Part shown: piece by piece, positions 15,741 to 63,340 of the stretch
Layout: each line of letters begins with the position of its first letter
Position numbering within the stretch: the stretch's first letter is position 1
From: Prorocentrum cordatum
Taxonomy: Eukaryota
Assembly (NCBI GenBank): GCA_963575745.1
Contig: CAUYUJ010000322.1
Span: 1 to 64,000, forward strand
DNA length: 64,000 nucleotides
Direction: 5' to 3'
The notes under the pieces: model-generated
Databases searched by the model: none
Told to the model about the DNA's origin: nothing
The model's input: only the letters and a program-made list of their open reading frames with translations
Translations under genes and position numbers: made by a program

Positions 15741-15756
15741 GGAGCATTACAAGGCC

Positions 15757-25170: not shown

Positions 25171-25177
25171 ACCAAGT

Positions 25178-28500: not shown

Positions 28501-28875
28501 TGACTCAACGCGCGCTGAGGGGGGCTACAGTGCTGGTGGTCACAGGAATCGATTTGAAGACATCAGGCGCGCCCGCCTGTCGAATCCAGAGCTCGGAACT
28601 CGGTCTGCTGCCCGAATTAGGTCTGCGAAACTACTGTGTTGTTCGAGTCATCCTGAGAGGTGCTGTCGGTTTTCTGCACTTAATTCGGGCTGTAGGGGGG
28701 CTGCAGGGCTGGTAATGACAGGAGCCGATTCGCAGACATCAGACGCGTTCGCCTGTCGCATTCAGAGGTCAAAAAATATTCACTATGAGTCGGAATGTTG
28801 GTAGGTGCTGTCGGTTTTCTCAACTTAAGTCGAGCTAGGAAGCTCTACGAGTCCCCCGGCGGTAAGGAAGGTTGA
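25503..28875 (+). repeat. Stack of family A elements (178-bp units) with a nested family B element
   Basis: Same unit sequence as 1-1133. An A 3' end at 27850 is followed directly by an A 5' end TGACTCGTAGAGCTTCC at 27851. Confidence 0.85.
26440..26836 (+). mobile_element. Full-length ~400-bp non-autonomous element, family B
   Basis: 5' TACCTCGTAGAGCTC and 3' GAGCTCTACGAGGT plus stem-loop. Cleanly interrupts the A consensus GATCTTAT|TCCCGCTCGCC with no TSD. Confidence 0.8.
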
Positions 28876-29381
28876 GGAAGCGGAGTTTACCTCCCGCTCT
28901 CCCTCGGCCTTGTCCCGTCGGGGGGCTCACTCGAGCTGCATCGTGCAGTCAGGCAGCCTGCCCCTGGCCCGCCGCGCGGGGGGCGCGTGGCGATTGGGCC
29001 ACTTCGGCGACGCCTGCACTTGTTTGCGGCATTGTTTGCACTTGTTTGCGAGCAGGCCGCCTGCACTTCTTTGCGGCATTTTGCCGCGTCGAGCTGGACG
29101 GGACGAGCCAGAGTCAATCGATCGATTTGGACCGCTGGGGAGCCAACTTCGGACATTGGGAGTGGGAGTATCTTGCCAGACAGGTTGGTAGAGCTCGACA
29201 CGACGATAAGGATTCTCTAGTCGACATACCATCTGGGCCACCTGATCTCTCTCCCACTTTACCTCACCATCCTGTTGCCCCATATAACTTTCATCAGTTG
29301 AGTGCACATCTCAAACGTACTCGAGAAGATCGATCGTTCTGTGCGAAGTGGAATATCCCTTGTAATATCTCAGACGGCAAG

Positions 29382-30428
29382 ATGGCTGCCTCATCAGCTG
29401 CTGCGGTCCCCGAGGTTTTCGCTATGGACGCCACGGATATGCCCGTTCCAGGAGCCAAGGAGGAGGAGGTCCCAGAGGGAAAACGGGTCAAAATTCAGAC
29501 GGTTGAAGGCCTCGAGGAGGCCATGACAAAGGGGATGGACAAGATCACGACGCTTGTTGCATCTCTGGGAGGTAAGATGACGGAGGGCTTCCAATCAACA
29601 CATCGAAGCATCACGGATCTCGGCACCCAGCTCAATGCTCGTGTTGATTCGGTGGAGAAAAATGTACAGCAGGCGATGACGGACATAGATGCTATTACTA
29701 AGAAGGTTGAGGATCAGAGGCTCCAGATAATCCAGCTCCAGCAGGCTCCTGCAGGTGGGGCCCCCAGAGCAGGCACCTCTACGACAGCGTCCTCGGCGGA
29801 AACTCGGCAGTCAGTGCAGAATTTCACCCCATCGTTCGTCGAGCTCAAGGGATGGGTGACGGACTGGAGGGATGCAGAGAAGCGTCAGGAGGAGATGTTA
29901 TCACAGCAGGCGTTGAATTCACTGCTGAATGAGGTCCTGGCTGGAGAATGGTTCAGTGGTGTGAAGGAGTTTCTGGACCTGAACCAATCCAAGAGGTTCA
30001 ACACAGGTAGAGAGGCGTGGGGGTATTCGCGTGCTCGGCTCTATTTCCAGAATGGGGTTACCAGTGACCAGCTGTGGGATCTTCGTCGTCGACTCGTTGC
30101 CGCGATCGCCGACAACAAACTCCAGCACGCTCCCAGGGCCCTCAAGGTCCACGTGGAGGCCCCCCCCTGGAAGAAGCCCCATCTGGATGCCGCTGGGATC
30201 TTTCAGGCCAAGTTCAAGAGTTTCAAGAAGCATCATTCGAATCTCAGGGCTGAGACGGGACCACCGATTACGTTCATGTGGGGCTCCAGTGACCACTTAC
30301 CACCTCCAGGGAAGATTGTGGCCAAGTTCTCTCTGCAGAATGGCTGGGAGATCACTCGTGCAATGAATCAGCTTGAGCCAGGGATCAACATTGATGAGTT
30401 GCGAGCGAGGATTTCCAGTACGAACTAG
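29382..30428 (+). CDS. LINE ORF1 (coiled coil plus globular domain)
   Basis: First ATG of the 28872 frame. Heptad-like LNARVDSVEKNVQQAMTDIDAITKKVEDQ. FTPSFVELKGW aligns with HVPTWIQISGF of copy 4. Lies upstream of ORF2. Confidence 0.75.
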   Translation: MAASSAAAVPEVFAMDATDMPVPGAKEEEVPEGKRVKIQTVEGLEEAMTKGMDKITTLVASLGGKMTEGFQSTHRSITDLGTQLNARVDSVEKNVQQAMTDIDAITKKVEDQRLQIIQLQQAPAGGAPRAGTSTTASSAETRQSVQNFTPSFVELKGWVTDWRDAEKRQEEMLSQQALNSLLNEVLAGEWFSGVKEFLDLNQSKRFNTGREAWGYSRARLYFQNGVTSDQLWDLRRRLVAAIADNKLQHAPRALKVHVEAPPWKKPHLDAAGIFQAKFKSFKKHHSNLRAETGPPITFMWGSSDHLPPPGKIVAKFSLQNGWEITRAMNQLEPGINIDELRARISSTN

Positions 30429-33400
30429 AGGTGCCACGACACCATTGCGTCATGGAATGTGCGTCGGGCAGGTGCAGAGAACGGCCATGACATAATTAAT
30501 TCACTACGTCGTTTAGATGTGGGACTCGCGGGGTTGTGCGAGTGTCAGTTCCTTTCAGTTCGTGATCTCAGCATGCGAGGTTACACAATTTTTCGGAGTA
30601 CTTGTCGGAAGGCTGCGGTGATTATGTCTAAGTCTTGGAGAGACTCGCTCAGAGCCACATATCGTGGCAAAGGTTTTGTCATTTGTAGTTATTCTAGTGT
30701 TACGGTTATTGTTGCATATATGCCACATGAGAGTATCAATGCCCTTACGGAAGAACAGTATGAGCATGATGTGTATGAACAGATATTGTTTGATATATCC
30801 CAAGTGCTTCGCACACATAGGTCTAAGTTCCCGAAGCAGCCGCAGGACCTGGTCTTCTTGACAGATGCTAACGTCGAACTCGAGCCAGATTCGGAGGTCA
30901 ACGGCTTTAGAGTTACTGGATCAGGGCTTCTGGAGGCGTCTGGGATTGCTGGGGAGTCTACGGAGATTGATACTGGGATGGAGGAGGGAGCGGATGACGG
31001 CAACCCGTATATGACTCAAACAAAACGTGGTGCACGCAAAGCCAGACCTCATAGGCTTGTCTCGGGCTTCGAAATTCGACGGGCGTCTAGGTTGCAATCG
31101 ATGAGGAGGGCCCTACTGGACTTCTGCGGGCTCTGGGGCATCAGGATGGAGAACACATTCGGGCAGAGGAGGGTTACTTTCAAATCAGGTACGGGGGTGG
31201 AGAAGGTGCTCGACTATGTTGGTGTCAGCCGTCGTTTACACAGGCAGGAGCTCACCGTTGGCTGGATGCTGCCTTCGGAAGTCGGCCACGCCTGGACGGA
31301 GCACCCTTGCAGCAGATACGAGCGTGCGCTGTCTGACCACGCCTGCATAGTTGTTCGCTTGTCTTGTGCACCGTCTGCGAAGAGACGGACCCAGCCTGCT
31401 CGAAAATTCATCCACTTGCAACCGGTGTCACAGCTGGAGTTTGCGAAGAACATGGACGATCGGGGCAGTCGTTACCGTGCTCTGTGCCAGGAAAATGCTG
31501 ACCCAGAGGATCGACAGGAGATGTTGGATACGCTGGGACCTGACCTCATAAAGGCCGCCGAGGAGACCCCCCAGAAAGATATCAATCCCAGGAATAATGT
31601 GCCAAAGAAATCCGAGATCCACTGGGCCGCCCAGGCAAGTAAACGTGAAGCTCTTCGTCGGGGGGATAGAGAGGAGGCTAAACGGTGCTCAAAGATTGTG
31701 AGGAGAGAAAGAAGGAGGCTAGAGGCAAGAGTACAGAGGTGGAGGACGGAAATGAACACGAGGAGGAGGAGGAGGGCCAAGACGGAGACGTTGATCCTTG
31801 CCAACGGGATGGAGTCTCAGAACCGCGAGGAGTGGGGGGACGAGATATTGGGGCACATGAAGTCTAAGGTGGAGGACCCCGAGGCCAGAGAGGTGACCCT
31901 GCGTGAGCTTCAGTCGCTGCGTGGTCTATGTTCGGGAAGCGGATCCTCAGAGGTGTTCTCGATGTCGCTCCTGCTGCGGGCGAGGGCGAAGCTGTCCACG
32001 GGAAAGGCCCCAGGTCCCGACAACGTGACTGTCACGATGTTGAAACAGCTCTCGTGGGCATCTGTGCGACGTGTTCTGGTGAGCTTCCAAGGTGTGTATT
32101 CCAGAAGGTTATGTTGTCCCGACAGTTGGCGTCAACTAGCTGCCACACTCATGCCAAAAGAAATGGACATACAACATTTGACAGATACACGTATGCTATG
32201 TCTACAGTCGTGTCTTATGAAATGGTACATGACATGTATTGTGATGTTGATTGAGAAGAGGATTGAGGAGCACCGACACTATGTATGCCTGTACGGATTC
32301 AGATCGGGACGCAAAACATCGGAAATCACCAGCGTTGCCAAGAGGCTCAGCCAGCACTCCGCTGTCTGGGGCAAAGGAGACAGTTTGTGGCTTGCCAATC
32401 TTGATATCTTACAAGCTTTCGATAATGTTACTCCGTGCCTCGCCATGCGCTGTCTTCGTGCTCTTGACATACCTGCTGATCTCATTGTGGCGTTGATTGA
32501 ACCCATGATGGATAATCAGTGCGTGGCCAGCTTCGAGGGCATCGAGGCATCGTCAGCGGTCTATTGGGACAAATCTATTCGAACGGGAGGAGTAGAGGGA
32601 CCTATGATTTTTCTGGCAGTTTCTATTGTACTCTGGAGAGATGTTATCGACAGATGGAGGCAAGAAACGCAGTACGGCATCAAATTGGAAAATGATGAGC
32701 GCATGTTCAATGGTGAGCGTATGACCCACAGTTTCTGGGCAGATAATCTTTTGTTGTATGCGAAGACCCGCACTGACCTTGAGTTGATGGTGCGTGACAT
32801 GAGTATCCCCCTGATGAATGCAGGAATGACCTGGAAGCCGAAATCTTTGATGTATATTTACTTTGGTGCGCCGCCTGGCATCCCGCCGTCCCCTGAGCAG
32901 GATATCCGTGTGCTGGTGCCGTCTAGTGACGCCGCTCTTGGGACCCGAGAAGTGGTCCTACCGCGTGTTCAAGCGTTTGAGATCCTGGGAGCCACTCTGG
33001 AGGAGACCTGGAAGGACCACTCGGACTCAGAGGCCATGCTCCAGAAAGCCCAGAGGATGTTCTTTGGGGAAATCGCGTATTACCGCTGTTCTGGGATTGA
33101 CTTGGCTGAAAGATTTACTCGCTATCAAGCTAAAGTGATTGCTGCATTATTATTCAACTGTGAGGGCAGAACGCCCGACTATTCTACCATTGCTGCTGTT
33201 CACTATTTTGAAGGCAGATGTCTAGCTATAATGTCAGGTATACGCAAGCGGAGAACTGAAGGCTGGTCTGAGTTTCAACGTAGGCGATACAAAGCGGGAC
33301 GACAGAGTTTTGCTGGACTTGGATTCCGAAGTGCGGTGCAGATATGGATATTTCGTTGTTGGGATTGGGCTAAGGATGTCTCAGTTGCTGCAAGTATTCG

Positions 33401-34604
33401 TATGAGGAGATACACAACACACACAGAGGAGGAGGAGGGAGAGACGGTACCAAATCGGCGTCAGAGGAAAACTCGGGCGATGGCGGCGGCGGCGACTTCT
33501 CAAACATATCATGTATCTCAGATATCCCAGATGTCGAGTGGCTGTCGCCGGCGTACACCAGATGATCAGCCTGCCATACCTGAGGAGTCGGACATGTCAC
33601 GTGAATGGATGATATCTAGGCTGGCCATGTTACATGGAAGGGGGAAGTGGACGGAACATCGTGACACATGTATTCTAGCAATGCCTGTAAAAGATAGGAA
33701 GCAGCTGACACGCATGAACATAGGCGGCCGCCCCCGTGGACATACTGCGTGGGACTGGTGCTTGTGCGATCTCTTTGGTTGTGAGTGGTACCTCTCATTC
33801 GACAGTTCCGCTGGGTCCCGTGAGAAATACTGCAAGCATTTGCTGACTGTGATTGGTATGCAACACTTGTTCGACTTGTTTGTTCTACCCAGGCCGCCTG
33901 GTGTGAGACATGTGAAGGCAGAGGAGGAGGAGGAGAGTGAGATGAATGAGAGGATGAGCAAACGTATTGCCGCAAATTTTGAGAATGAAACGGAGTGGAG
34001 GTGTGAGAATATTGAGCGTCTTGGGATGGAGATCTTGGGAGATAGTAAGACTGTTGTAAACTGGATGTGTGGTGAGTGGCAGATTCGCAACAAGCAGTAT
34101 GTACGACTGGTGGGAACACTACAAAATACGGTATCGATGCTGTCTGGATGGGGACTGACCTCACCTGCATCGGGACAGAATCTGTATAAGCATTTCTTTC
34201 GTGAGGGTAATGAGCGTGCGGATAAATTGTCGTGGGAGGCCAGAGGTGGCCAAACTATTACTCGCTGGTTTGCATATGATAAGTTCCTCAGTACTCGTAA
34301 GACTGCTCTCCGTGGTGCATTCGATGGGGGTGTCAGTAATGAAGGATGTGGAGGTGGGTGGTGGCTTCAGATTGGCGTTGTAGGTAGGGGTTCCAGCGTG
34401 CAGGTTGATTTTCCCATCTCCTCCTCCTCCTCCTCCTCCTCTTCCTCCTGCACCAGCTCGCACAGCTTCCATTGGCACGATGTGGCCGAGGAGGCGATGA
34501 GCTTGCCTCCTGGTAGCACGGTAACCTGCTGTGAACTAGCTGCCTGCGCTGCCCTGACGAGAGCTGCTGCTAAGGTGGCGTGCGCTCTGCTACGACCTAC
34601 CTAA
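30429..34604 (+). CDS. LINE ORF2: APE endonuclease - reverse transcriptase - circularly permuted RNase H
   Basis: IASWNV, LCE, VAYMPH, TDANV, LDYV, SDH (APE). KAPGPDNV, YGFRSGR, LDILQAFD, IRTGGVEGP, FWADN (RT). GDSKTVVNW, HFFREGNERAD, AFDGG, TVTCCELAA (RNase H). No ATG before WNV. Confidence 0.93.
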   Translation, partial: RCHDTIASWNVRRAGAENGHDIINSLRRLDVGLAGLCECQFLSVRDLSMRGYTIFRSTCRKAAVIMSKSWRDSLRATYRGKGFVICSYSSVTVIVAYMPHESINALTEEQYEHDVYEQILFDISQVLRTHRSKFPKQPQDLVFLTDANVELEPDSEVNGFRVTGSGLLEASGIAGESTEIDTGMEEGADDGNPYMTQTKRGARKARPHRLVSGFEIRRASRLQSMRRALLDFCGLWGIRMENTFGQRRVTFKSGTGVEKVLDYVGVSRRLHRQELTVGWMLPSEVGHAWTEHPCSRYERALSDHACIVVRLSCAPSAKRRTQPARKFIHLQPVSQLEFAKNMDDRGSRYRALCQENADPEDRQEMLDTLGPDLIKAAEETPQKDINPRNNVPKKSEIHWAAQASKREALRRGDREEAKRCSKIVRRERRRLEARVQRWRTEMNTRRRRRAKTETLILANGMESQNREEWGDEILGHMKSKVEDPEAREVTLRELQSLRGLCSGSGSSEVFSMSLLLRARAKLSTGKAPGPDNVTVTMLKQLSWASVRRVLVSFQGVYSRRLCCPDSWRQLAATLMPKEMDIQHLTDTRMLCLQSCLMKWYMTCIVMLIEKRIEEHRHYVCLYGFRSGRKTSEITSVAKRLSQHSAVWGKGDSLWLANLDILQAFDNVTPCLAMRCLRALDIPADLIVALIEPMMDNQCVASFEGIEASSAVYWDKSIRTGGVEGPMIFLAVSIVLWRDVIDRWRQETQYGIKLENDERMFNGERMTHSFWADNLLLYAKTRTDLELMVRDMSIPLMNAGMTWKPKSLMYIYFGAPPGIPPSPEQDIRVLVPSSDAALGTREVVLPRVQAFEILGATLEETWKDHSDSEAMLQKAQRMFFGEIAYYRCSGIDLAERFTRYQAKVIAALLFNCEGRTPDYSTIAAVHYFEGRCLAIMSGIRKRRTEGWSEFQRRRYKAGRQSFAGLGFRSAVQIWIFRCWDWAKDVSVAASIRMRRYTTHTEEEEGETVPNRRQRKTRAMAAAATSQTYHVSQISQMSSGCRRRTPDDQPAIPEESDMSREWMISRLAMLHGRGKWTEHRDTCILAMPVKDRKQLTRMNIGGRPRGHTAWDWCLCDLFGCEWYLSFDSSAGSREKYCKHLLTVIGMQHLFDLFVLPRPPGVRHVKAEEEEESEMNERMSKRIAANFENETEWRCENIERLGMEILGDSKTVVNWMCGEWQIRNKQYVRLVGTLQNTVSMLSGWGLTSPASGQNLYKHFFREGNERADKLSWEARGGQTITRWFAYDKFLSTRKTALRGAFDGGVSNEGCGGGWWLQIGVVGRGSSVQVDFPISSSSSSSSSSCTSSHSFHWHDVAEEAMSLPPGSTVTCCELAACAALTRAAAKVACALLRPT

Positions 34605-37058
34605 GATGGTGGGGGCTCAGTTGCACTGCTCCGCCGATTCGGATTCGGATTCTAGTGGCGGACCGCAAACCGCAAAAAAAACCAAGGTTGACGGTTTACC
34701 GCCGGCGCCCAGTTCCGGGGCGCTGGAGACCTAGTTGGCAAGACAAATCTCGACGGACCTTTTGGTGACTTTGGTCTGTTTGTTCTCGAAATTCAACCAT
34801 TCGTTAGAGCTCTAGTTTTTTTTTTCACGTGGTATTCGATCTTATTCCCGCTCGCCATCTTGATCTCAGCTCGATCGGGTACCTTTCACTGCCAAAAAGC
34901 GTCCAGGCGGGATCGGCCGTTTCGAGTCATCTTGATACGCGCTTTCGGTTTTCTCAAGACAACTCGAGCTTCAGGACAGCCACAGAGCTGATAAGCACAT
35001 CTAATCGATTCAGAATGTTCAGGCGCGTTTGCTTGTTGAATCGAGAGGTATGAACTCGGTCTACTAGCCGAGCTAGGTCCGCAAACCTATTTGTATTATT
35101 CGAGTCATCTTGACTGACGCTCTCAGTTTTCTGTACTTGACTTGAGCTACAGGACAGCTACAGAGCTGATACGTACAGAATCGGATTCAGAATCATCTGT
35201 TGCCGTTGTTTGTTGAATCCAGAGCTCTGAACTCGGTCTGCTGCCCGATCTAGAATCGCGAAACTATTCGTATTGTTCGAGTCATCTTGAGAGGTGCTGT
35301 CGGTTTCCTGCACTTAACTCGGGCTGTAGGGGGGCTGCAGGACTGGTAATCACAGGGATCGATTCAGAGACATCAGGCGCATCCGCCTTTCGAATCGAGA
35401 GCCGAAATCTGTCTGCTGCCCGAACTAGGTTCGCGAAACTATTCGTATTGTTCGAGTCATCCTGAGAGGTGCTGTCGGTTTCCTGCACTTAACTCGGGCT
35501 GTAGGGGGGCTGCAGGACTGGTAATCACAGGGATCGATTCAGAGACATCAGACGCGTCCGCCTGTCGCATGCAGAGGTCTGAACTCGGTCTGATACTCGA
35601 GCTATTCGTACTGTTCGAGTCATCTTGAGAGGTGCTGTCGATTTACGCACGTCACTCGGGCTGTAGGAGAGCTACAGAGCTCGTACAGAAGACAATCCAG
35701 AAGCATCGGGGGCGGTCGGCTGTTGCATCCGAGAGGTCTGAAATTGCTTGGGCTGAAAAACTATTTTTTCTGTGTTATTTTTTTCGACATTATATGTTGT
35801 CAGGAAGCTCTATGAGTCCCCCGGCGGTAACCAAGGTTGACGGTTTACCGCCGGCGCCCAGTTATTGCTGGGAGCTTAAGAGTAATTCGGGGGCGCCGGA
35901 GAGCTAGTTGGCAAGAAAAATCTCGACGGACCTTTTGGTGACTTTTGGTCGGTTGAAAATTTTGCTCTCGAAATTCAACCATTCGTTAGAGCTCTAGTAT
36001 TTTTTCCCGTGCTATTCGATCTTATTCCCGCTCGCCATCTTGATCTCAGCTCGATCGGCTACCTTTCACTGCCAAAAAGCGTCCAGGCGGTATCGGTCAT
36101 TTCGAGTCATCTTGATACGCGGTGACGGTTTTCTCAAGATCACTCGAGCTTTAGGACAGCTACAGAGCTGGTAAGCACAGCTAATCGATTCAGAATGATC
36201 AGGCGCGTTCGCCTGTTGAACCCAGAGGTCTGAACTCGGTCTGCTAGCCGAGCTAGGTCCGCAAACCTATTCGTATTATTCGAGTCATCTTGACAGACGC
36301 TCTCGGTTTTCTGTACTTAACTCGAGCTACAGGACAGCTATAGAGCTGATGCGTACAGAATCTGATTCAGAATCATCAGTGGCCGTTATCTGTTGAATCC
36401 AGAGCTCTGAACTCGGTCTGCTGCCCGCTCTAGAATCGCGAAACTATTCGTATTGTTCGAGTCATCTTGAGAGATGCTGTCGGTTCTCTGCACTTAACTC
36501 GGGCTGTAGGGGGGCTGCATGGCTGGTAATCACTGGAATCGATTCGGAGACATCAGGCGCGTCCACCTTTCGAATCCAGAGCTCCGAGCTCTGTCTGCTG
36601 CCCGAACTAGGTTCGCGAAACTATCCGTATTGTTCGAGTCATCCTGAGAGGTGCTGTCGGTTTCCTGCACTTAACTCGGGCTGTAGGGGGGGCTGCAGGG
36701 CTGGTAATCACAGGAATCGACTCAGAGATATCAGACGCGTCCGCCTGTCGCATGCAGAGGTCTGAACTCGGTCTGATACTCGAGCTAGGTTTGCCAAACT
36801 ATTCGTATTGTTCGAGTCATCTTGAGAGGTGCTGTCGATTTACGCACGTAACTCGGGCTGTAGGAGAGCTACAGAGCTCGTACAGAAGACAATCCAGAAG
36901 CATCGGGGGCGTTCGGCTGTTGCATCCGAGAGGTCTGAAATTGCTTGGGCTGAAAAATTAGTTTTCCCGTGTAATTTTTCTCGAAATTATATGTTCTCAG
37001 GAAGCTCTACGAGTCCCCCGGCGGTAAGACAGGTTGACGGTTTACCGCCGGCGCCCAG

Positions 37059-46405: not shown

Positions 46406-48252
46406 CTTCGTACGGAGGTGAGTCTCGCATGCATGAGCGAGACCAGCTGTATGGGCATGATGTCAAAGTTTCTCAATCGAAGTTGCGCCGCCTGCGGGCG
46501 AAACGTGTCAGGTATCGTTTGTGGTCCACAGCTCGGGGGCCAGATCCGTGGTGCCTTGTTCGCGCGGGCATTTTCGCGCCCAGATATTATCGGAATTTCT
46601 GCTCGGACGATTCTGAGGAAGAGGAGTGGGTTGAGGACACTTGTGGAACACAGACTGATATGGATGCTGTTGAATTGGCTGGCAACTCTTTGCGTTCGCA
46701 TTGTTCCGATTGTGGGACTCAGACAGATCCCTGTGTTCACATTGAGTGTGGGACTCAGACTGATCTTTCTGTTCTCTTTGTTGGTGAGGAGGAGAAGGAG
46801 GAGTGTCATCGAGTGCGCGCTGATCAGGGTGATGCTTCTGCACTTGGGAGTTCCTGTGCAGTCGGGAGTTCCACTGTTCGGAGTGCAGTAGGAAGTTCCA
46901 CAGTTCGGAGTTCCGCTGATGCAGTTGTGGATGCAGTTGGGAGTTCAACAGCTGGGAGTTCTGCAGTTGGGAGTACCGCGGTTTGGAGTTCAGCTGATGC
47001 TGTGGCATCGAACCCTGGCTGCAAGGACGAGGAGGAGGAGAATGTTCATAGTGAAGCAGTTGCTAAGATGGAGCAGGAGGAGGTGGCTGAGGAGGATTTT
47101 GTTCATGTTGGTGAGGGGGAGAAGGAGGAGTGTCATCGAGTGCACGTTGATCGGGGTGTTGCTTCTCTCAGAAGGAAGAGATCTTGTTTCAAACGAACGG
47201 AGACTATCGAGAGTACAAAGTTGCACACTTCAGAATTGCATGCGACCAACGGGAGTGCGGTGGAGAGTACCGCAGTTTTGAGTACAGTTGATGCAGTCGG
47301 GAGTTCCAGTGCAGTCGGGAGTTCAACACTTGGAAGTGCAGTAGGAAGTTCCACAGTTCGGAGTTCCGCTGATGCAGTTGAGGATGCAGTTGGGAGTTCA
47401 ACAGCTGGGAGTTCTGCAGTTGGGAGTTCAGCTGATGCAGTAGGGAGTTCCATGAATGGGAGTTCTGCAGATCGACCGAGTGAGACACGCTCTGAGTGCC
47501 AAGCTGCCAGGGACTGGGCCCTTGCCGGTGTCGATATGAGGGCTCTTTGGCTTGAGCTACACCGACTCCCGACACAGGAGTTTCAGCGTAGGACTGAGGC
47601 TCTTAATGCATACAGGCTGCAATTGGGAATTGAAAGTTCCGAGGAGGATGATTCGCAACAAGGGGGTCCTCAGAGTTCTACTTCCAGGAGTGCATTGACG
47701 CGGAGCGGCAAGAAGCATCGGAAACGGCACAGATGATGCACATGCGATTGATCCTGCACGCTTGATTTGTCATTGCGTTGCCTTTCTTCATTGATTGAGT
47801 GCATTCGTTGCTTCCTTGATTTGAGTGCTCATTGACCTTTGAACGTGACTTTCCGTGATTTGTCACGTGGTGCCTCAAAGTAGGCCTTTGATCTGTCGAC
47901 ACTACGGTTGCCTCAAAGAGGACTGGCGTGTACTCGTCATTATAGTTGTTAGTTTTGTGTTTGTCTCAGTGGTGTTGAGACGGTAATCGCTGTATAAACC
48001 AGTGGTTACTGTGTGGTCTCTCACTGCTTTTATTTTCAGTGGTGCTGAGACGGTAATCGCTATATGTGGTTACTGCATGGTCTCGCACTGCTTTGCTTCC
48101 ATCAATCTTTTAGGTGCATTCTCGTGTATTGTATACTTGTGCATTCCTGTACAGCTTCGCAGTTTGTGCACTTGTACTTAATCTTTGCAGCTTCGCTGCT
48201 TAGGTTCTTTGTGTTTAGGCCTGCTCCCATGGGAGCTCGAACCGGCCTTCGG
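46406..48252 (+). mobile_element. Non-autonomous coding insert E1 joined to a family B stem-loop
   Basis: Unique sequence begins after GGTTGACGGTTCACC. One ORF followed by a T-rich 3' UTR-like region. Shares a domain with E2. Confidence 0.55.
46429..47736 (+). CDS. Hypothetical low-complexity protein (3x CGTQTD, AVGSS repeats, SECQAARDW domain, basic C-terminus)
   Basis: 435-codon ATG ORF. The C-terminal ~50 aa are homologous to ORF 50618-51559. Confidence 0.55.
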   Translation: MHERDQLYGHDVKVSQSKLRRLRAKRVRYRLWSTARGPDPWCLVRAGIFAPRYYRNFCSDDSEEEEWVEDTCGTQTDMDAVELAGNSLRSHCSDCGTQTDPCVHIECGTQTDLSVLFVGEEEKEECHRVRADQGDASALGSSCAVGSSTVRSAVGSSTVRSSADAVVDAVGSSTAGSSAVGSTAVWSSADAVASNPGCKDEEEENVHSEAVAKMEQEEVAEEDFVHVGEGEKEECHRVHVDRGVASLRRKRSCFKRTETIESTKLHTSELHATNGSAVESTAVLSTVDAVGSSSAVGSSTLGSAVGSSTVRSSADAVEDAVGSSTAGSSAVGSSADAVGSSMNGSSADRPSETRSECQAARDWALAGVDMRALWLELHRLPTQEFQRRTEALNAYRLQLGIESSEEDDSQQGGPQSSTSRSALTRSGKKHRKRHR

Positions 48253-49890: not shown

Positions 49891-49926
49891 CCGTAGCCAT
49901 TTTGGCTCAAGCCATTTTGGCTCAAG
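49891..49926 (+). other. Dinoflagellate spliced leader (DinoSL) plus one relict SL
   Basis: CCGTAGCCATTTTGGCTCAAG (49891-49911) followed by CCATTTTGGCTCAAG (49912-49926). Exact match to DCCGTAGCCATTTTGGCTCAAG apart from the first base. Confidence 0.97.
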
Positions 49927-50064
49927 AAAAGAGCTCTACGAGCTGCATAGTGCAGAGAGGTGTCCTTTTGTTCCTCTTACTGTACACGGTGCCTCAGTGT
50001 CGGTTTTGCCTGAGTGCCTTTGGATCGTGCGGACAGGGTGATCTGTCGGCATTGAACTGATTAG

Positions 50065-51559
50065 TTGTTCTTGCGTGCCCCTTCCTTGTGCGGCATCATG
50101 ACAGCGCAATTTTGTTCGATGAGTTCTGTTTCGACCAGTTGGAAAAGAAAAACAATGATAATCAAACTGGCGATTTGTAGACAAGCTGTATTTGATGTTA
50201 TGCAGTTTAATGCTCGTGATCCATATTTTGTGGCTGATCCGAATACTTTCCCCGCGTTTGGCTGGTTTGATAGCCTCGATGATTGTGCGCGAAACCCATG
50301 CCCGTTTCAGGGGAACTCGGAGGAGCAGGTCAGTATATTGTCGAGTTCCTTATCGGTGCCAACTGCTGGGCCAACTGATCGTGGAGAAGCTTTCTCGTCT
50401 CAATCGGTTGCGTATTCTCCAGATGTGGTGCAGTCTCCAGATGGTGGGCTGCAGTCGAGACTGGGCTCTGTTTCTTTTGATCCTGGTGTTCAGAATGAGG
50501 GGGCGTTTGAGGACAAGGAGGGGATGAAGGATACGGAGGTTGCCAAAGTTGCTGCGAATCCGTATTGTGCAGAGATCCATACGGCCGCTTCAGGATCCCA
50601 GGATGTAGGACCCAACCTTGCTGCCGAAGAAGCGTCGCTTGCTTCTCAATCAAATGATGCTGTACTGCACTCAGTTCCTTTGGATTATTCTCTGCACTCA
50701 GCTCCTTTGGATTATTCTCTGCACTCAGTTCCTCTGGAGTATTCTCGAGTGCAAAGGGAAGGTGGAGGGAGGCCCCGAGGCGCTGCCGTTGGCACCCTCG
50801 AAAACCCACGGAGAGTGCGAAGTCGACCAGCGTAAAGATAACTGTGCTTCTTCTTCCCGGCTCTGTTCAGATGAGTTGCAGAGCAATCGATCTGAGTGTC
50901 AAGCTGCCAGGGACTGGGCCCGTGCCAATGACGACGCAGTTGCTCTTTGGCGGGAATTCGAACGGCTCCCGAAAGAGGAGTTTTATGCTCGGATCGAGGC
51001 GCTCAAGGCATACAAACTTCGAATGGGAATTGAGAGTCCCGAGGAGGCGCCGAGTCCTGAGGAGGATGCTGGCCGCGGGAAAGGCCAGAGGCACCGCAGA
51101 AACAGGAGGCGGGCAAGGGCGAAGGCTCAGGCAGTTCTAACTGGCTCTTCTATGTCAAAGTCGGCCCATCCATCTACTTGCGATCCTCCCCAACCTCCGT
51201 CCTCTTTTCACGATTCAGTTTCTTCCGCTATACCCGCCCCAAGTGTGCCCTTGTTGCCCGAAGGCGACAAGGGGGCGGAGGTGGATGAGTTGCATAACAA
51301 TCAATCAGAGTGCGATGAGGACGCTGATTCGGATGCGGCCTTCCACGCATGGGATAAAATGGCCACCCAGCGAGTGAGGGCAAATTTCTATTTGAAGAAG
51401 GCTGCTCTGCACCGTTTGTGTGAGGCTTTGCACCGTGATGGGGGGGAGGACGCGGACATCCAGAGAAACTGTGGGCTGTGTCGGTTGGACAAGATAAGGA
51501 TGCACCGTATTGCAGGGTGGTGCTTCGGACATTTGCGAGCAGCTCTCTTATTTACATAA
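50065..51559 (+). pseudogene. Frameshifted hypothetical protein of E2 with SECQAARDW domain
   Basis: Overlapping ORFs 50065-50835 and 50618-51559. 3x 27-bp repeat at ~50665-50745. The start codon is uncertain. Confidence 0.45.
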
Positions 51560-52263
51560 GATGCTCGTGCACCGTTTTGCACGAAGCTATGTTCATACCA
51601 CTCTTATTGTATATGCGAGTACAACAAAAACTAGACGGCCTCCGTGGATTCTTCGACGGAGGGCGCTCTGTGGAGGGATGTGCCTCCATTGGCGGCTCTG
51701 TATGGCCGTGGAACACGTTTTGGGTAGCCTCTTTCTTCTTTAACCTGTTCCTACACCTTTGCAATTTCACATGTCGTGCTGCATCCTTTTCCTTGTTCCT
51801 GCATCCTATTCCGATGCCTATGCCTCAGTGGCTCGGCAGTGTGATGATAAGAGATGCCTTCTCTTGCTACCCTGTGCTCCGTTTGGGAGTCTTAGGGCTC
51901 AGCTGTCACAGCTGTCCGCGCCCTGACTCAAACTCAAAAAACCAGGTTGACGGTTTACCGCCGGCGCTCAGTTTGTCGACCCGACCAGAAAAGAAGATGT
52001 GGTAACTTTGGGTGGGTTTTCCAAAGATTTCAAAGATATTTGATAATTCATTTTGAGAAAGCAGATTTTTCGCACCTGTAGTGGGTTATGCCGCGTCTGC
52101 CAGTTAAATTCTTAGGTCCGTAGCTGCAGTATTACTATCAAAACACTTGGAGGAACCGCCTTTGGATGAAAACCGAAAGTCGTGATTTTTCGAGTTTCTC
52201 GTTTCTCGCTCCAGAAGCTTTCTTCATGTGTTCCGAGGATTGCCGTGCAAGAAAAGAGCTCTT

Positions 52264-52300
52264 ACATATATATATATATATATATACTATATATATATTA

Positions 52301-52385
<85 letters not shown>

Positions 52386-52392
52386 TATATAT
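52264..52392. repeat. (TA)n microsatellite
   Basis: Directly visible. Confidence 0.97.
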
Positions 52393-56238: not shown

Positions 56239-56528
56239 ACCCGGAGAGCTCTCTGAGAGCTAGAGGGTTTTAGAGTAGAAGCCGTACGGTGGTGGTGCCC
56301 GCCAGCAGCCCATCTCCGCCGCTCCACGATCCTCGCAGCGCCTCGCCCGTCCCGGCAGCTGGTTCGAGGGCGCTTCCAGCGCGCGTCCACGTGTGCCTGC
56401 ACGCGTGCAGGCACGCGTGGAAGCGTTCCTGACAGCGCTTCAGAAGCGCTGCAGGGGGGCCCCCCAGAGCTCTCCAGGAAAGATTTCCGTCCCCAAGGGT
56501 CTCTTCGCTCTCCGGGTTTTGGACGCTA
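56239..56528 (+). mobile_element. Family C element
   Basis: CCCGGAGAGC .. GCTCTCCGGGTTTTGGACGCTA, followed by a B-type 5' end. Confidence 0.7.
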
Positions 56529-56911
56529 TACCTCGTGGAGGTCTTCGGCGTCGATGAGCTGAGGAATACCTCGTAGAGGAGCTAGTTGACCGACCCGGCC
56601 TTAAGAGACAAAGTGGTGACTTTGGGTCGATTTTGCTAAGATTTGAGAGATATTTGACCATTCATTTTGAGAAACCATATTTTTCGCACCTGTAATGGGT
56701 TATGACTCTTGCGCCTGTAAAATTTTCAGGTCCGTAGGTACAGTATTACTACCAAAACATTTGGAGCAACCGACGTTAGATAAACATCGAAAAACGTTTT
56801 TTTTTTTTCTCGAGTTTCTCGGATCTCGCTCCAGAAGCTTCCCTCATGTGTTCCGAGGGGCGCGGAAAGAGCTCTACGAGGGTCCCGGCGGTCTACGAGG
56901 GCCCCGGCGGT

Positions 56912-59900
56912 CCCGGAGGAGTGTGAAGAGATAGCTGCGGAGGTCTATGAGCAGATCACTCGTTCTCGTAACGTACTCCGCACTAAGTTTCCTCATGCCA
57001 GCTTTTGTGTTCTGCTCGATGCAAATGTGGAGATTCTGCCTGGATGCAAGTTTACGTATAATGGGGCGGTGTATGAGGCTACTGGAGAGGAGGGTACTCG
57101 TATGGAAAGAAGGTGGGAGAGAGGAGGAGACGGTACACAGCATATTGAGAGGAGGAATCGGAGGAGGAGGCTGAAGGAGCTGCTCTTAGAGTTCATGGAA
57201 TCGCATGGACTGAAGGCCGCCAACACTTTCAATACTAGGAGGCATAGTTGGGAGTCGTGGGGGGAGAACAAGTTTCTGGCTTCGAAGAGGGTCCTGGATT
57301 ACCTACTTGTCCCTTATCGTTGGGAGTTCTCGGATCTGGAGGTGAAGTGGTGTTTCAAGAGGGGTGGTAAGAAGCAGGTCAGCAGATTATCAGATCACGC
57401 TATCATCGCGGCGAGTCTCACGGACCCTGGGGAAGTGATTGTTCGTCGCCCAGACCCCCAGCCTGGTCAAAGTTTTAGGCCGTCCCTGGTCGGATACAAG
57501 TGTTCGACTTGGGCTGATGAGCATCAGGCTCGGCAGCGTGTGGATATGAATCTAGGCGGTGCGGCCTTCGCTCGTTCGGGGTGTCCGTCTGTGCTCCGTC
57601 CCGAGTGCTTGCAGAGTACTATGCTGGAGGCGTACGTGTCGCCTGCGGTGGACTTCTCCACCACGAGGGCGGGGGGGCCAAAGGAGCCGTCCAGGCCGGT
57701 GCAGCTCACTTGGGCCGAGGGGGAGGTTAAGATGTGTCCGAAGGAGGAGGTTGAGAGGTTGAGGAGGTTAAAGAATGAGGCCAATCGTCTACGCAGAAGT
57801 TATCGACGGGATATGATTATGTGCAGATGTCCCCCAACAAAACGAAAGGTCATATATACTATCAAACATTTAGTGGTGGATGGGAGGGAGACGGAGGATC
57901 GTGAGGAGTTGAAGGAGGAGCTCGACAAGTTCGTTCGTTTCAAGGTGTCGTCCGAGGAGGCACGCAATTCCACTAACAGTATGATGGAGGAGATCAGGAT
58001 GAGGGCTGAACATGAGGTGCGATCCACATCAGTTTTGGGAATTAGTATGGCGCTGCTTCTCAGAGCACGGGCTCGGCTGAAGACCCAGAGGGCTACTAGG
58101 CCAGATGGGGTACCGTGCGAGATTCTCAGGAGTTTGCCGCGGTGTGCTCTCAGATCGATCCAGAAGTTGTTCGATAAAATCATCAAGCTCATGACTCCTT
58201 ATCCGCAGTCGTGGCGTCAGATCCTCATCTCTTTTATGCCCAAGATTCCAGGGATTACTAAGTTGAAAGACGGTCGTTTGCTGTGTATGCAGAATGCTGT
58301 TTCGAGATGGTTCAGTTCCTGTATTGTTCTCCTGGTTGAGGGCCATGTTGAAAGAAACTGAGTTTTTCGTCATATTGGGTTGTATGGGTTCCAGCAACAT
58401 CGTCGTACACACGAAATCACGGCTAGCATCAAACATATAGGTCAACATGCTGCACACTGGGGAAAAGGGAAAACGGCACACTTGGCGAACGCTGATGTCC
58501 TCCAGGCGTTCGATCACTGCACTGTGGCCAATGTCAGGCGTGGGTTGGATCATGCAAATGTGCCCCCTGTACTTACAGTATCCTCTACTTAACCCCATGT
58601 GTGAATGTATAGGCACTGTCTATTATGATGGGATTGAGGTTTTGGAGGTGATGTGGGACAAATGTATTCGGACGGGAGGGCCTGAGGGCCCATTGGCTTT
58701 CAATCTTATTGTTGCCGCTACGCGGAGTTCCACGATTCGAGAATGGGACGTGCTGGGCCTAGGTTATCGTATTGAGTTTGCTACTGGCTCGACTAGCTGT
58801 GTTTCGGTTATTAATCACTTCCTCTGGGCGGACAACTGTTATGTTCTGGCTCGGAGTCGGGAGGAACTCACGCGCATGTTACATGACTATGGTATGAGAT
58901 GGAAGGAGTCCAGTCTACTGTGCATGGTGTTCGGTGCTGCTCCTCCGCGTGATGCGGAAGGGGAAATATTCCGAACTGCTGATCTTGTTCTTTCGATTGG
59001 GTCGGAGGATTCGGGAGTGTATCGATTCAGAAGAGTGACGGAGATGGAGGTGCTTGAGGCTCACATTTGTTTTGAACTACATGTAAATGAGCATCCAGAT
59101 CTGGATGCTAGTATTGACTCTGCTCGAAGGGCGTTCTGGGGCCAGGCGTCCTTCTTCCGCTCTACGGCCATTCCGCTGAAAGATAAGTATGAGAGGTATG
59201 CGCAGAGGGTTCAGAGTATTGTTCTCTACGCGGCGGCAGGATGTACGGTCGACTCTAACTCATTGAGTGCCCTTCATATCTTTGAGGGTAAGTGCCTGGC
59301 TGTCATGTCTCGTTGTGTACGGAGGGAGGAGGAAAGTTATCAGGAGTGGAATACGAGGAGGTACGAACGTGCGAGACAAAACACCCATGATGCACATTAT
59401 GTGGGTATTGTACAGAAGTTTCTCAGAGTGCACTCCATGTGGGCAATCGACGTCCACGATTTTGCCCAGAGGTTGATCGCATATCAGGAGGCGCTGGAGG
59501 CGAACTCTACAAGAGCTTGGAGAGATTCTCGTTTCTCATGCCTGGCGTTTGGCCGGCTGTGGGATAGAACGAGGACAGATTCAAGCGAGGCTCTCAGATG
59601 TTGGGGGAAATGGAAGTAGGCCAGCTCACTGAAACGACATCGTGGGGGACAGGAGAGTGTAGGACTTCGTTCTTGGTATTATTCTTTGGAATCGTTTTAT
59701 GGTTTATCCTGGTGGGCGTTCTTTGTTGGAAGCTTTGAACATTTCATGGATTTCGCTGCGCATGTTTGTTCTAGTAGTATGTTGAAGTATTTCCAGAAGA
59801 AATGCAAAGGCTTGGCGTCCTCAGGGGTGCCTGTGTTCTTGAATATGGATGAGGATGGAAGGGGTTCATATTGGTCAGGATCGGGAGGATACACCAGCAT

Positions 59901-60894
59901 ATAGGGATCGCCCTAGCAAACGTATCGCGCTGCATAACATGCGTTGCACACAGTGGGGCCTCGAAACGAATGGGATGCCATTGGACATCCAGGGGGGTTC
60001 ACTGCTTGTGATTAACTGGCTCTGTGGGATATGGAAAGTATTAGCTCAGGTATATCAGAAAAGGGTAGACACTCTGATAAATAAGTTGGACGAGATGCAG
60101 GATACATACTCGGTGAGGACTCCAGAGGCTGGCCGTGATTTCTTCTCTCACTCTTTTCGGGAATGGAACCAGAGGGCTGACTTACTGACCCATCAGGCCC
60201 GTCAGGGCCATGTGTGCGCCGATTTCTTTTACCTCAGTGATTTCGAATCTCAGTGTTGCTCCTTGCCTTATCAAAGCTGGCTTTGATGGGGGTGTTTGCA
60301 GCCGCGGAAGTGCCTGTGGCGTGTGGATACAGATAGGTATATTTAACAAGTATATCTTCTCGCGGACCGACATCACTTTCAAGGATGTGTATCTTGCGGC
60401 TTGGTGTCTGCCACCAAGTGCCACGGTCGCAGATGCGGAGTTGCCAGCTGCGGAGCGCATATGCGATGTGCTCCCACAGGTTGTGCAGACCTTCTTTGAT
60501 CATTCGCAGTGATAAGTCGCACATTGTGTCATCTCATACTTTGTCTTCTTGTATATTTTAACAGCTTCGCTGTTTATTTGTTCTTTGTTTGTCATCTGTG
60601 TGCTTTGCGATTGATTGTGTCATTGCAGGCTTTTGATTCTCTTTATTTCAACAGCTTCGCTGATGTGAAATAAGAGCTGACTGCTTGCGTGATGAATGAG
60701 AGGCTCTGATTCGCCTGAGACTTCGTTGGACCTGGCCTCAGTGGCCAAGACGGTCCCAGCAAAGACGCAACAACAACCTGGTTGATGCTCCAAGAGTATC
60801 ACGTTTTTCAGGGTACATCCAGCCCACAGGGGATGGCTGCACCAACCACACCGCCCTTGTAGGGCCCCGTGGTCGGACCGCAAACCGCAAAAAA
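56912..60894 (+). mobile_element. Non-LTR retrotransposon copy 3 (5'-truncated, frameshifted ORF2)
   Basis: LDANVEI, AANTFN, LDYLL, SDH; ADVLQAFD, IRTGGPEGP, FLWADN; HSFREWNQRAD then GFDGG. Tail GGACCGCAAACCGCAAAAA|ACCTGGTTGACGGTTTACCGCCGG. Confidence 0.88.
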
Positions 60895-60946
60895 CCTGGT
60901 TGACGGTTTACCGCCGGTTCCCAGTTCCGACGCGGGGTGGAGCTAG

Positions 60947-61322
60947 TACCTCGTAGAGCTCTTCGTCATCGATGAGCTAGAGGAATTCCGTCGCGGGGTG
61001 GAGCTAGTTGGTCGATCCGGCCAGAAAAAAAGATGTGATAACTTTGGGTCGGATTTGCTAAGATTTGAAAGATATTTGACAATTCATTTTGAGTAACCAG
61101 TTTTTTCGCATCTGTAGACGACTGTGAGAGCCTCTGCGTCTTAATATGAGCTCTGTAGGCGCATTTTTACTATCAAAACACTTGGGGGAACCAACTCTAT
61201 GTCGACATGAGAAAATAAATGTTCAATTTTTTTAAGAAATGCCTCCAGAAGCACTCTCCTTCGACTCTGAGCACTCTCGCGCGTGGAAGGAGCTCTACGA
61301 GGTTCCCGGCGGTGACCAGGTT
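60947..61322 (+). mobile_element. Family B element interrupted in its stem-loop by LINE copy 4
   Basis: TACCTCGTAGAGCTC .. GAGCTCTACGAGGTTCCCGGCGGTGACCAGGTT|. Confidence 0.75.
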
Positions 61323-63340
61323 ACGACCCAGGTCTCTGCCCAGGTGGCCCCACTAGCCTCATCTGTCCAGGAGATTCGTGAGGTTCAGGAGTCCCAGGCC
61401 AAGCAGATTCGGGAAATCCAGTTGCAGATGAGCGCCCAGTCCAATGCGTCAGAGGGTGGTTCGTTGGCTGGAGAGTCGACTCGAGCATCGGTTAACAGAG
61501 ACTTTCGTAGACCCTTTGAGCCTCATGTACCGACATGGATTCAGATCTCAGGCTTCTGTAAGGATGATCCTCGAAAGATTGAGAACCGTGACAAGGCCAA
61601 GCTTCCCGTGAGCACTGCGCGTGATATGATCGCAAAGCTGTATGCTGTATCGAGTGCTCGTGACGGGTTGGAGGGCAGCATTTTCGATAAGGAGCGTACT
61701 GAACGGGACTTGGATTCCAACAAATTCGGTGTGACTCGCTTCAGGATCTTTTTCAGGAATGGCACGCCAAAAGACACGGTCTGGGAGGTCAGGAATGAGT
61801 GGTGCACAGCTTGGTCCGCAAAGATTCCCGATCTTCTTTGTCAGAACGCTTTCGGGCCCTATCATGATCAGTATTTGGGTTGGCTTGTGCAGCCGGCACC
61901 GCGGGATCGTAGGAGAGTTTCGGAGACACGTAAGGCTACGGCGCAGTTTCACAAACGTAAGAGGGTGCAGCAGGCCCAGATTCTGTTCGAGGCTGAGGGT
62001 CCTATGAAGGCGTGGATGTATGCCCAACGATCCTCCTCATCGGCTCGCGTGTGTATCGGTATGTGGACAGACGCGCTCGGATGGAAGATCTCGAATGATA
62101 AGTTGAAGGAAGTTGACACGGGGATCGACGGCTCAGTTTGGGAGGTCGCTCTTAACAGTACTCAGTGACGGTGCCCAGCCCTGTGCGGAGGTTGGAATAC
62201 ACGGAGGTTGGGGACACGCACCTCCGAGTGCATGCGATATCTTGCTGACCGTGATCTCTCTATTGTTGCTCTCCAGGAATGCCACCATTTGAATGATGTT
62301 GAGGTTGAGGATGTGGGGTGGGATTCTAGGTACTCCGAGTGTAGGCGGGCTGTTGTCTTGTACCGTGGTTCTCGGAAGCACCTCATCCTAGACAGCATCT
62401 CTGGTGATCGTTGGGTTGCTATTGTATTTCGTCATCTTATCTTCGTTTCCGCTTATCTTCCTCATCGTGAAAGTGAGCTTGGTGATAATGGTGAGCCTCG
62501 GGGATCTTCAGAAGGCCACTACGCTAGTTTCGCCAAGTACACCAGTGTGCTGTCAGGTCTGACATCCAAAGTTCTTGCTGCGAAAAGAAGTATTCCATTC
62601 GTGATCTTGTGTTGCAGGTCGATGCCAACGTGGAAGTGTATCCTAATCAGTCTGTCGATAGGATACTCGTGACTGGGGGGGCGGTGGAGGGTCCCAAGGC
62701 CAAGCCTAGGAGGAAGGCCAAGGAGGGGAGTGCGGACATCATGCGTGATCAGATGCGTGAGATGTATTGTCGGGCCCCTTGAAAACCATGGGCGCCCTGA
62801 AGCTCCGCCTTGCGAACACTTGCGGCACGCGCGCGCCCGCTTGGAAACATTGCACACGTAAATATCAGCATGTGTATGACTACTTCGCTATCCCGACGGA
62901 CTGGCAGGTTCCAGAGGTCTCCTGTTCGTGGGTCTTACCATCTGATGTTGAGCATTAACCCCATAGAGCTCATCACTAAGGCTGTCTTTGAGGGTGCCCG
63001 CGAGACTTTGGACCTTTCTCGTAATTCTGGTAGACAATCTTCTGGGTTTCCGAAGCTCTCAGAGGACCACCTGAGGATTAAGGAGGAGCACTACGGGATT
63101 AGGCGGGAGTACAAGAGGGAGGAGGTGGAGAAGGAGGTGTATAATTACCCTGGCGACGTACCCAACCCCTGCGCAAAAGCGGGGCGCAAATAGTTTAGGA
63201 TACTTTACAAGGGGGCGATGACGGAGCGAGGGTTACATATGTCTGCATACGGAATTCGGGAGACTCGCAGGACACTGGCTACAGGAAAAGGGCTTGATAA
63301 AGCTGATGATTTACAATTCCTGAGCACTCCTAGCCACTTC
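61323..63340 (+). mobile_element. Non-LTR retrotransposon copy 4 (truncated ORF1 to 62168 plus decayed APE region)
   Basis: ORF1 homologous to copy 2. TGA-CGG-TGC..GWNT, LQECH, VSAYLPH, VDANVE, YDYFAI. The 3' boundary is approximate. Confidence 0.75.

Follow-up and report, generated by a model that had tools for sequence, protein, structure and literature searches.

Probable target-specific insertion of APE-type LINEs at the 3' hairpins of Helitron2-type transposons in a Prorocentrum cordatum contig

In a 64,000-nucleotide stretch of Prorocentrum cordatum DNA (contig CAUYUJ010000322.1, positions 1 to 64,000; this whole stretch is called the window below), long interspersed nuclear elements (LINEs) lie inside the 3' terminal hairpins of Helitron2-type rolling-circle transposons. 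Split hairpins house three of the four LINE copies that bear a reverse transcriptase (RT), namely C2, C3 and C4, together with a further retroelement, E2, and all of these inserts lie on the same strand. Judged from the sequence, these LINEs probably represent a target-specific lineage with an APE-like endonuclease that inserts at Helitron2-type 3' hairpins. The original prediction, a LINE lineage site-specific for the rolling-circle 3' stem-loop, was borne out within the window by the orientation and the 3' junction nucleotide that three diverged families and E2 have in common.

The survey of LINEs and of transposon termini covered this one 64-kb window. A profile of open reading frame 2 (ORF2), built from C2 ORF2 and 11 homologues (12 sequences) and searched in six frames, detected exactly four LINE copies, 4/4 on the plus strand. 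These copies and two further inserts are:

22324..25172, plus strand: LINE C1; profile matches at 22324-25065; 5'-truncated with an internal deletion, tail (ACCCCAA[C])2, hairpin not adjoining
28876..34680, plus strand: LINE C2; full length; profile matches at 30444-34586; tail (ACCGCAA)2 plus A-run
56912..60894, plus strand: LINE C3; profile matches at 56919-60503; 5'-truncated in APE (profile position 107), with frameshifts
61324..62722, plus strand: LINE C4; ORF1-like region at 61320-62168, then the APE start of ORF2 at 62190-62722; 3' part not seen
49891..51941, plus strand: retroelement E2; no RT; tail (ACTCAA)2 plus A-run; in a split hairpin
46407..48230, plus strand: insert E1; starts in the right arm of a hairpin; 3' end lost

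The LINEs of the window are APE-RT-RNase H elements of at least three families. Their ORF2 holds an APE-like endonuclease and an RT, and the copies carry the signatures of retrotransposition, with A-rich, short-repeat tails, 5' truncation (C1 and C3) and an 8-bp duplication (C2). E2 is likely a non-autonomous passenger.

The target of the insertions is the 3' terminus of the rolling-circle elements, in which an inverted-repeat motif, the 3' asymmetrical terminal inverted repeat (3'-ATIR), is followed by the hairpin CCGGCGGT-N17/18-ACCGCCGG. In full form the terminus reads ...GGAAGCTCTACGAG-N4-CCGGCGGT-[loop ...GGTTGACGGTTT]-ACCGCCGG-CGCCCAG, followed by T. We place the element end between CCCAG and this T because the sequence further downstream differs from copy to copy. 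The window contains 14 exact CCGGCGGT-N(10-30)-ACCGCCGG hairpins, compared with 0 in 100 shuffled sequences; the half-motif ACCGCCGG occurs 43 times (2.5 expected) and the upstream motif AGCTCTACGAG 40 times with at most one mismatch (1.3 expected). A search anchored on AGCTCTACGAG with up to two substitutions allowed yielded 26 Helitron2-type 3' termini, 24 on the plus strand and 2 on the minus strand (44686 and 42865). Intact termini number 21 of the 26; the five that are split are at 28841, 46363, 49876, 56870 and 61291. The hairpin halves beside the targeted inserts are:

28841..28875, plus strand: left hairpin half of C2, comprising the ATIR, the left arm and the loop up to GGTTGA
34681..34712, plus strand: right hairpin half of C2, which is flanked on either side by AAGGTTGA
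56870..56911, plus strand: left hairpin half of C3; the 5' junction carries a duplication of the 19-bp CTACGAGGG(T/C)CCCGGCGGT
60895..60924, plus strand: right hairpin half of C3, CCTGGTTGACGGTTTACCGCCGGTTCCCAG
61291..61323, plus strand: left hairpin half of C4, broken after GACCAGGTT
51942..51971, plus strand: right hairpin half of E2, with the 3' junction as in C2 and C3

All three preserved 3' junctions (C2, C3 and E2) fall at one loop position, as had been noted beforehand for the intact ones, with the A-run of the tail abutting CC(AA/T/A)GGTTGACGG. This position is where the top of the stem meets the loop, between GGT(R)A and CC; on the top strand, ...GGT(R)A is followed at the junction by CC(W/AA)GGTTGACGG. 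The C2 junction, at about 34680, joins ...ACCGCAAACCGCAAAAAAAA to CCAAGGTTGACGGTTTACCGCCGG (tabulated extent, ...GGACCGCAAACCGCAAAAAAAA to CCAAGGTTGACGGTTTACCGCCGGCGCCCAGT), that of C3, at 60894, joins ...ACCGCAAACCGCAAAAAA to CCTGGTTGACGG (...GGACCGCAAACCGCAAAAAA to CCTGGTTGACGGTTTACCGCCGG), and that of E2, at 51941, joins ...ACTCAAACTCAAAAAA to CCAGGTTGACGG (...GACTCAAACTCAAAAAA to CCAGGTTGACGGTTTACCGCCGG). Each tail consists of two short units and an A-run, the units being (ACCGCAA)2 in C2 and C3, (ACTCAA)2 in E2 and (ACCCCAA[C])2 in C1, and CC follows the A-run in all four, C1 included. The 3' tails of C2 and C3 match at 25 of 26 nt; their local alignment scores 45, and 200 shuffles of comparable segments reached no more than 28. 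The claim that C2, C3, C4, E2 and E1 all break the same hairpin holds for the first four and fails for E1, which breaks its hairpin 21 nt further right and has lost its 3' end.

Several other similarities around the junctions were set aside. The 5' similarity between C2 and E2 (16/17 nt) scores 29 against a shuffle maximum of 28 and was not used; complementarity between tail and loop (AAACCG/CGGTTT) extends over six nt, too short to count; and global flank identities are uninformative, with a shuffle baseline of up to 0.6. The tail folded together with the right hairpin half is no more stable than shuffled sequences (z -0.16).

At the 5' side, C2 begins at 28875/28876, where ...CCGGCGGTAAGGAAGGTTGA meets GGAAGCGG, and its target-site duplication is 8 bp, with AAGGTTGA at both ends. 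C4 begins at about 61323, where ...CCGGCGGTGACCAGGTT meets ACGACCC; its 3' junction is beyond recognition. Relative to the first nick proposed below, the 5' junctions are 7-10 nt downstream in C2 and C4 and upstream in the truncated C3 and E2, where small deletions and flank duplications accompany them. The C3 junction joins ...CCGGCGGT to CCCGGAGG at 56911/56912, and that of E2 joins ...CTACGAGGTTCCCG to TAGCC at 49891, within the left arm, where a 17-bp flank duplication with 32-39 bp of filler occupies 49876-49942. The flank duplications of C3 and E2 suggest template switching during 5' joining. Variable 5' junctions are usual for LINEs.

The inserts share a target nucleotide and a single orientation, and they are independent copies. 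Used as a blastn query in the window, C2 finds only itself; the protein identity between LINE copies is 29-34% by tblastn and 27-45% over tblastx segments; and in the alignment of C2 with C3 DNA a single 26-nt stretch of the RT is all that aligns beyond the 26-nt tail. The hairpin subtypes also differ, with TCCCCCGG...CGCCCAG at C2, GGGYCCCGG...TTCCCAG at C3 and GGTTCCCGG at C4 and E2, as do the upstream flanks of the insertion sites. Because the LINE bodies have diverged to about 30-40% amino acid (aa) identity and show no nucleotide similarity except in the tail, we interpret the copies as independent insertions and not as one duplicated event, in agreement with the earlier claim of highly diverged LINEs and separate events. 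A single ancestral LINE-in-hairpin insertion, multiplied by segmental duplication or by transposition of a composite Helitron, was named beforehand as the finding that would overturn that claim, and the region is indeed rich in tandem and nested duplications. Yet the LINE bodies are unalignable as DNA past the two short stretches while the hairpin flanks are near-identical, the 5' junctions and hairpin subtypes differ, and the ORFs of C2 are open, so that the copies are to be read as diverged active lineages and not as decayed duplicates; amplification of one insertion is barely credible.

Chance is also a poor account of the positions. Hairpins make up 1.4% of the window, and the binomial probability that at least four of five junction-bearing retroelements fall within them is about 1.8e-7, or about 1.3e-6 if the calculation is confined to the Helitron-rich part; the location of three 3' junctions at one position adds a factor of about 1/34^2. 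These values bear on a model of regional bias and survivorship, in which LINEs insert broadly, with a weak A/T-independent preference, and persist only in gene-poor Helitron arrays. The stretch from 25 to 64 kb is all transposon debris and C1 lies in Helitron-derived sequence outside a hairpin, both of which favor that model, but nucleotide-identical junctions are not obtainable in this way, and the probability within the Helitron-rich part and the junction factor both count against it. We therefore regard survivorship as very unlikely.

Some points count against the reading of a hairpin-specific lineage. First, one of the four RT-bearing copies, C1, is not at a hairpin and lies in Helitron-derived sequence. 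After its tail come CCAAGTT and a match to the Helitron unit at 56143-56911 that begins at about position 98 of the unit and not at its terminus, and no left hairpin arm is found upstream of C1. The suggestion that this copy likewise ends at a C/D terminus did not stand, and C1 was rejected as a further targeted copy, since its tail adjoins an internal Helitron segment. The tail is still trailed by ACCAAGTT, and C1 is either an off-target insertion or a rearranged copy. Second, the break made by E1 is inside the right arm of its hairpin, displaced rightward by 21 nt from the LINE junction, with ...GGTTGACGGTTCACC joined to CTTCG at 46406. E1 has no recognizable 3' tail or junction, running into a 177-bp repeat at about 48230, and shows no similarity to RT or to LINE ORF1. 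The nature of this insert is ambiguous, and we do not count it as support for targeting. Third, the 5' junctions are irregular. Fourth, outside the 8-bp duplication of C2 the left copy of the loop has GG where the right copy has CC, and the exact position of the nick and the origin of 'ACC', from target or from RNA, are therefore ambiguous. Fifth, the evidence for insertion spans one 64-kb window, and off-target copies elsewhere in the genome are possible.

E1 and E2 have in common a 160-bp segment (75% identity) and a protein segment that is 50% identical over 89 aa. This segment (E1, 46384-47736; E2, 50618-51559) contains ...SECQAARDWA...LP..EF..R.EAL.AY.L..GIES.EE and belongs to no Pfam family. 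E1 also contains Ser/Ala-rich internal repeats.

The irregular 5' ends and the displaced break of E1 are among the features that would favor capture independent of any LINE endonuclease. In such a scheme the hairpin, lying at the center of a palindrome, is extruded as a cruciform and broken by host structure-specific nucleases or by Helitron replication, and the break primes LINE complementary DNA (cDNA) with no specificity on the part of the LINE. The 3'-ATIR, the hairpin and the 5'-ATIR of the next unit do form a long palindrome, and the 5' junctions with deletions, filler and flank duplications fit a process of this kind. Against it stand the complete tails of three diverged families that end on one nucleotide, the 8-bp target-site duplication of C2, the single orientation of all insertions, and the conservation of the APE catalytic residues, with D293 and H294 invariant and D252 nearly so among the 12 homologues. 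Insertions made without an endonuclease usually have truncated 3' ends and no duplications, and we consider capture at broken hairpins improbable. Capture by the Helitrons themselves is highly improbable. Helitrons are known to pick up host and transposon fragments, which might place pieces of LINEs near rolling-circle 3' ends, and a UCH domain is fused to the RepHel protein in relatives of the window element. Foreign DNA acquired in this way would be expected beside an intact hairpin and not between its arms, and the A-run tail set against the right hairpin half and the duplication around C2 are signatures of retrotransposition.

Insertion by a hairpin-specific LINE lineage would proceed by target-primed reverse transcription, in a single orientation, at the apex of the Helitron2-type 3' hairpin. 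The 3' junction implies that the first nick would be made on the bottom strand after ...CAACCWGG; the second nick would lie 7-10 nt downstream in C2 and C4, whose 5' parts are long. The element's own endonuclease presumably recognizes either the conserved loop and stem sequence or the extruded hairpin, and the abundant Helitron termini would offer a harmless landing site. The 3' hairpin of a Helitron serves as its termination signal, and splitting it may inactivate the Helitron end in that role; we use the labels 'hyperparasite' and 'disables the Helitron' as inferences only. The GG/CC mismatch at C2, together with the CC that follows the A-run in four tails (n=4), suggests that the junction 'ACC' may be RNA-templated, through read-through or a unit-initial ACC.

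A more elaborate version, which we consider possible but rather unlikely, holds that the lineage reads the extruded hairpin, both structure and loop sequence, that transcripts reading through into the right hairpin half pair with the nicked target by way of a loop-derived 3' end (…A-run-ACC(W)GG…), and that the LINEs act as hyperparasites through destruction of the terminator. Read-through rDNA (ribosomal DNA) sequence of R1 is said to anneal likewise at its target. Such a mechanism would explain both the mismatch of the C2 'ACC' with its own loop (GG left, CC right) and the presence of ACCAAGTT after the tail of the off-target C1. If it were true, Helitron transposition could be blunted by terminator-destroying LINEs, which might also favor bypass of the terminator and the formation of head-to-tail arrays like those of the window.

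The protein assignments rest chiefly on the homologue profile. C2 has two open frames, ORF1 at 28872-30428 and ORF2 at 30459-34604 (1381 aa), the latter with the order APE-RT-permuted RNase H. As a single sequence, C2 ORF2 matches Pfam RVT_1 (9e-12) and gives no APE domain in Pfam even at E values up to 10; a single-sequence phmmer search of PDB gave no match, L1 chains included, at E values up to 1. The motifs E, D-N-E, D and SDH of APE endonucleases are visible in the translation, and the 12-sequence profile matches L1 ORF2p in PDB at 7e-29 over APE and RT (profile positions 5-706), followed by R2 proteins (2e-19), ExoIII (7e-6) and RNase H (6e-6). Homologues of ORF2 are present in public metagenome assemblies, the best full-length one 31% identical and others 31-34%, along with short fragments at 73-96% identity; a scan of viral contigs with ORF2 peptides gave 0 matches.

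In C4, the ORF1-like region is 25% identical to C2 ORF1 over 173 aa (E 2e-9, tblastn/blastp), and the APE region matches the profile at positions 9-105 and 119-165. The ORF1-like frame extends upstream without a stop to an ATG at 61239, 84 nt into the Helitron flank; it is possible that the target supplied the start of an ORF1 fusion, and chance is also conceivable. Beyond C4, a 102-bp tandem array (63355-64000, 6.3 copies, 95% matches) runs off the end of the window.

The RNase H domain of C2 ORF2 (33906-34601, residues 1150-1381) appears circularly permuted. Its DS and NExAD motifs (strand 4 to helix E) precede FDGG, GxG and AEL (strands 1-3 and helix A), C1 and C3 have the same order, and the acidic residues D1195, D1255, D1289 and E1359 are invariant in the 12 homologues. 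An AlphaFold model (predicted local distance difference test, pLDDT, 85.3) has the order b4-aB-aD-b5-aE-b1-b2-b3-aA. Foldseek aligned half of this model to the RNase HI structure 3aly_A (73 columns, root-mean-square deviation 2.2, probability 0.97) and returned no full-length match, and a literature search for permuted RNase H found nothing.

The elements that carry the target hairpins are genuine rolling-circle transposons, with a 2536-aa ORF containing DUF6570, Helitron_like_N and PIF1. Their coding regions and representative termini are:

8130..15740, plus strand: RepHel ORF, 2536 aa; Pfam DUF6570 (3e-19), Helitron_like_N (5e-11) and PIF1 (3e-13)
15757..19197, plus strand: UCH ORF of the autonomous element; Pfam UCH (3.5e-20)
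37003..37058, plus strand: example of an intact 3' terminus, with 3'-ATIR AGCTCTACGAG, hairpin CCGGCGGT-loop-ACCGCCGG and CGCCCAG; DNA fold -12.6 kcal/mol, z -2.1
27851..27890, plus strand: example of a 5' end, with T and then the 5'-ATIR GACTCGTAGAGCTTCC in a 5' hairpin; fold -12.7 kcal/mol, z -2.9

Helentrons in the strict sense encode a transposase with an endonuclease domain downstream of the helicase. No Exo_endo_phos match was found by Pfam, at E values up to 0.01, in the ORFs at 3049-8475, 8130-15740 and 15757-19197, and the precomputed Pfam lists of five RepHel homologues (P0188-P0192) contain no endonuclease domain. These homologues have the same domains as the window protein, and UCH is fused in 3/5 (proteins of 2786-3622 aa). 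The targets had been described beforehand as Helentron-like; the RepHel ORF upholds their rolling-circle nature, and we prefer 'Helitron2-type' to 'Helentron' because the RepHel ORFs are without a detected endonuclease domain, their termini being those of Helitron2.

As defined by Bao and Jurka (2013; PMC3627910), Helitron2 elements have a 3'-ATIR directly upstream of a 3' hairpin near the element end, and a 5'-ATIR that lies 0-2 bp from the 5' end, which begins with T, and forms part of a 5' hairpin. All of these terminal features, namely 3'-ATIR and 3' hairpin, 5'-ATIR and 5' hairpin, and 5' T, are found in the window elements alongside the RepHel protein. One base past a terminus, positions 27852-27867 are the exact reverse complement of the 3'-ATIR GGAAGCTCTACGAGTC at 27792-27807. 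In the head-to-tail arrays, 3'-ATIR, hairpin and the 5'-ATIR of the next unit create a long palindrome, and both the 5' and the 3' hairpins fold better than shuffled sequences (z -2.1 to -3.2). The window elements differ from the described group in that many units have internal 177-bp tandem repeats and stand in head-to-tail arrays, and in that UCH adjoins or is fused to RepHel.

Related termini also occur outside the window. A genome-contig scan with the hairpin half returned three loci, one of which (L004) was rejected as a chance match. The other two, L003 (terminus at 2820-2871) and L005 (minus strand, at about 60-111 when reverse-complemented), belong to one public bacterial metagenome-assembled genome (MAG) and carry intact related termini with the same ATIR and loop, which, as far as these two sequences go, indicates conservation of both beyond the window. 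The two contigs are probably eukaryotic contamination of the MAG bin. The ORF2 profile matched nothing in this MAG, and the hairpin half matched nothing in a scan of viral contigs.

For C2 itself, 20 sequencing-run entries match part of the stretch, with no RNA run listed, and in nine runs at least half of the words sampled from 28700-35000 are present. In four of the runs, each from a different study, contigs that differ little from C2 cover it; a 3032-nt contig in run X1 differs at three positions, and one X1 contig continues from the C2 tail into the right half of the hairpin, with a single additional A. In 4/4 runs the hairpin flanks have a k-mer depth 1 to 2.5 orders of magnitude greater than the LINE body, a summed depth that is not a copy number and that fits a highly multicopy target. 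Run contigs break at repeat boundaries, and the 'joints' that skip C2 are other intact hairpin copies. A metagenome scan with the 21-nt tail CGGACCGCAAACCGCAAAAAA found only two loci (L001 and L002), both AT-rich, unrelated and attributable to chance. Being full length, with open ORFs, and present in several public data sets, C2 is a candidate active element.

The closest known parallel is Tx1L of Xenopus laevis, a LINE of the Tx1 clade whose target is Tx1D, a non-autonomous piggyBac family, and whose specificity is ascribed to its endonuclease (PMC4494074, PMC1919474). Both systems, as described there, involve an APE-type LINE specific for a site inside another multicopy DNA transposon. They differ in that the target here is a rolling-circle terminal hairpin and that of Tx1L an internal site of a cut-and-paste transposon, and in that ORF2 here includes RNase H and several deeply diverged families use one target. 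The same papers (PMC1919474, PMC4494074) list R1, R2, SART1/TRAS1 and other target-specific LINEs in rDNA, telomeric repeats, small nuclear RNA genes and microsatellites, where insertion into a conserved multicopy target is likewise precise and oriented, the 3' junction exact and the 5' junction variable, and a target shared by related families. The targets of R1, R2 and SART1/TRAS1 are host genes or simple repeats, in contrast to the cis-acting end signal of a selfish element, a stem-loop, and the R2 endonuclease is restriction-like and not of the APE type. L1 ORF2p is the best match of solved structure (APE-RT alignment 5-706, E 7e-29), a match that assigns no clade, as the LINE proteins in PDB are only those of L1 and R2; it differs from the proteins here in that theirs have a C-terminal RNase H in permuted order.

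LINEs specific for multicopy targets, including a DNA transposon (Tx1L in Tx1D), are thus already known; as far as our literature search shows, what is new is the rolling-circle terminal stem-loop as a target class, shared by deeply diverged families. That search covered full-text literature by titles and abstract openings, with subscription journals and Repbase Reports outside its scope, and found no report of LINE insertion into Helitron hairpins. Target-specific LINEs are natural models of site-directed retrotransposition, and a hairpin-specific lineage, if confirmed, would add a target class that is another parasite's replication signal and also a stem-loop. It would raise three questions: can an endonuclease of the APE type read DNA structure, does one transposon here antagonize another, and do such insertions shape Helitron arrays?

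Other features of the window concern the Helitron units and base composition. An inverted pair of hairpin termini, joined tail to tail, lies at 42753-42865 (...ACCGCCGGCGCCTAGTCGACTGGCGCCGGCGGT...). The 177-bp tandem repeats inside non-autonomous Helitron units occur at 157-1010 and at many places in 25621-55745, and a (GAG)68 microsatellite occupies 1930-2133. G+C content is about 70% in the autonomous coding region (2000-20000), in strong contrast to about 50% across 26000-64000, where the non-autonomous arrays and LINEs lie.

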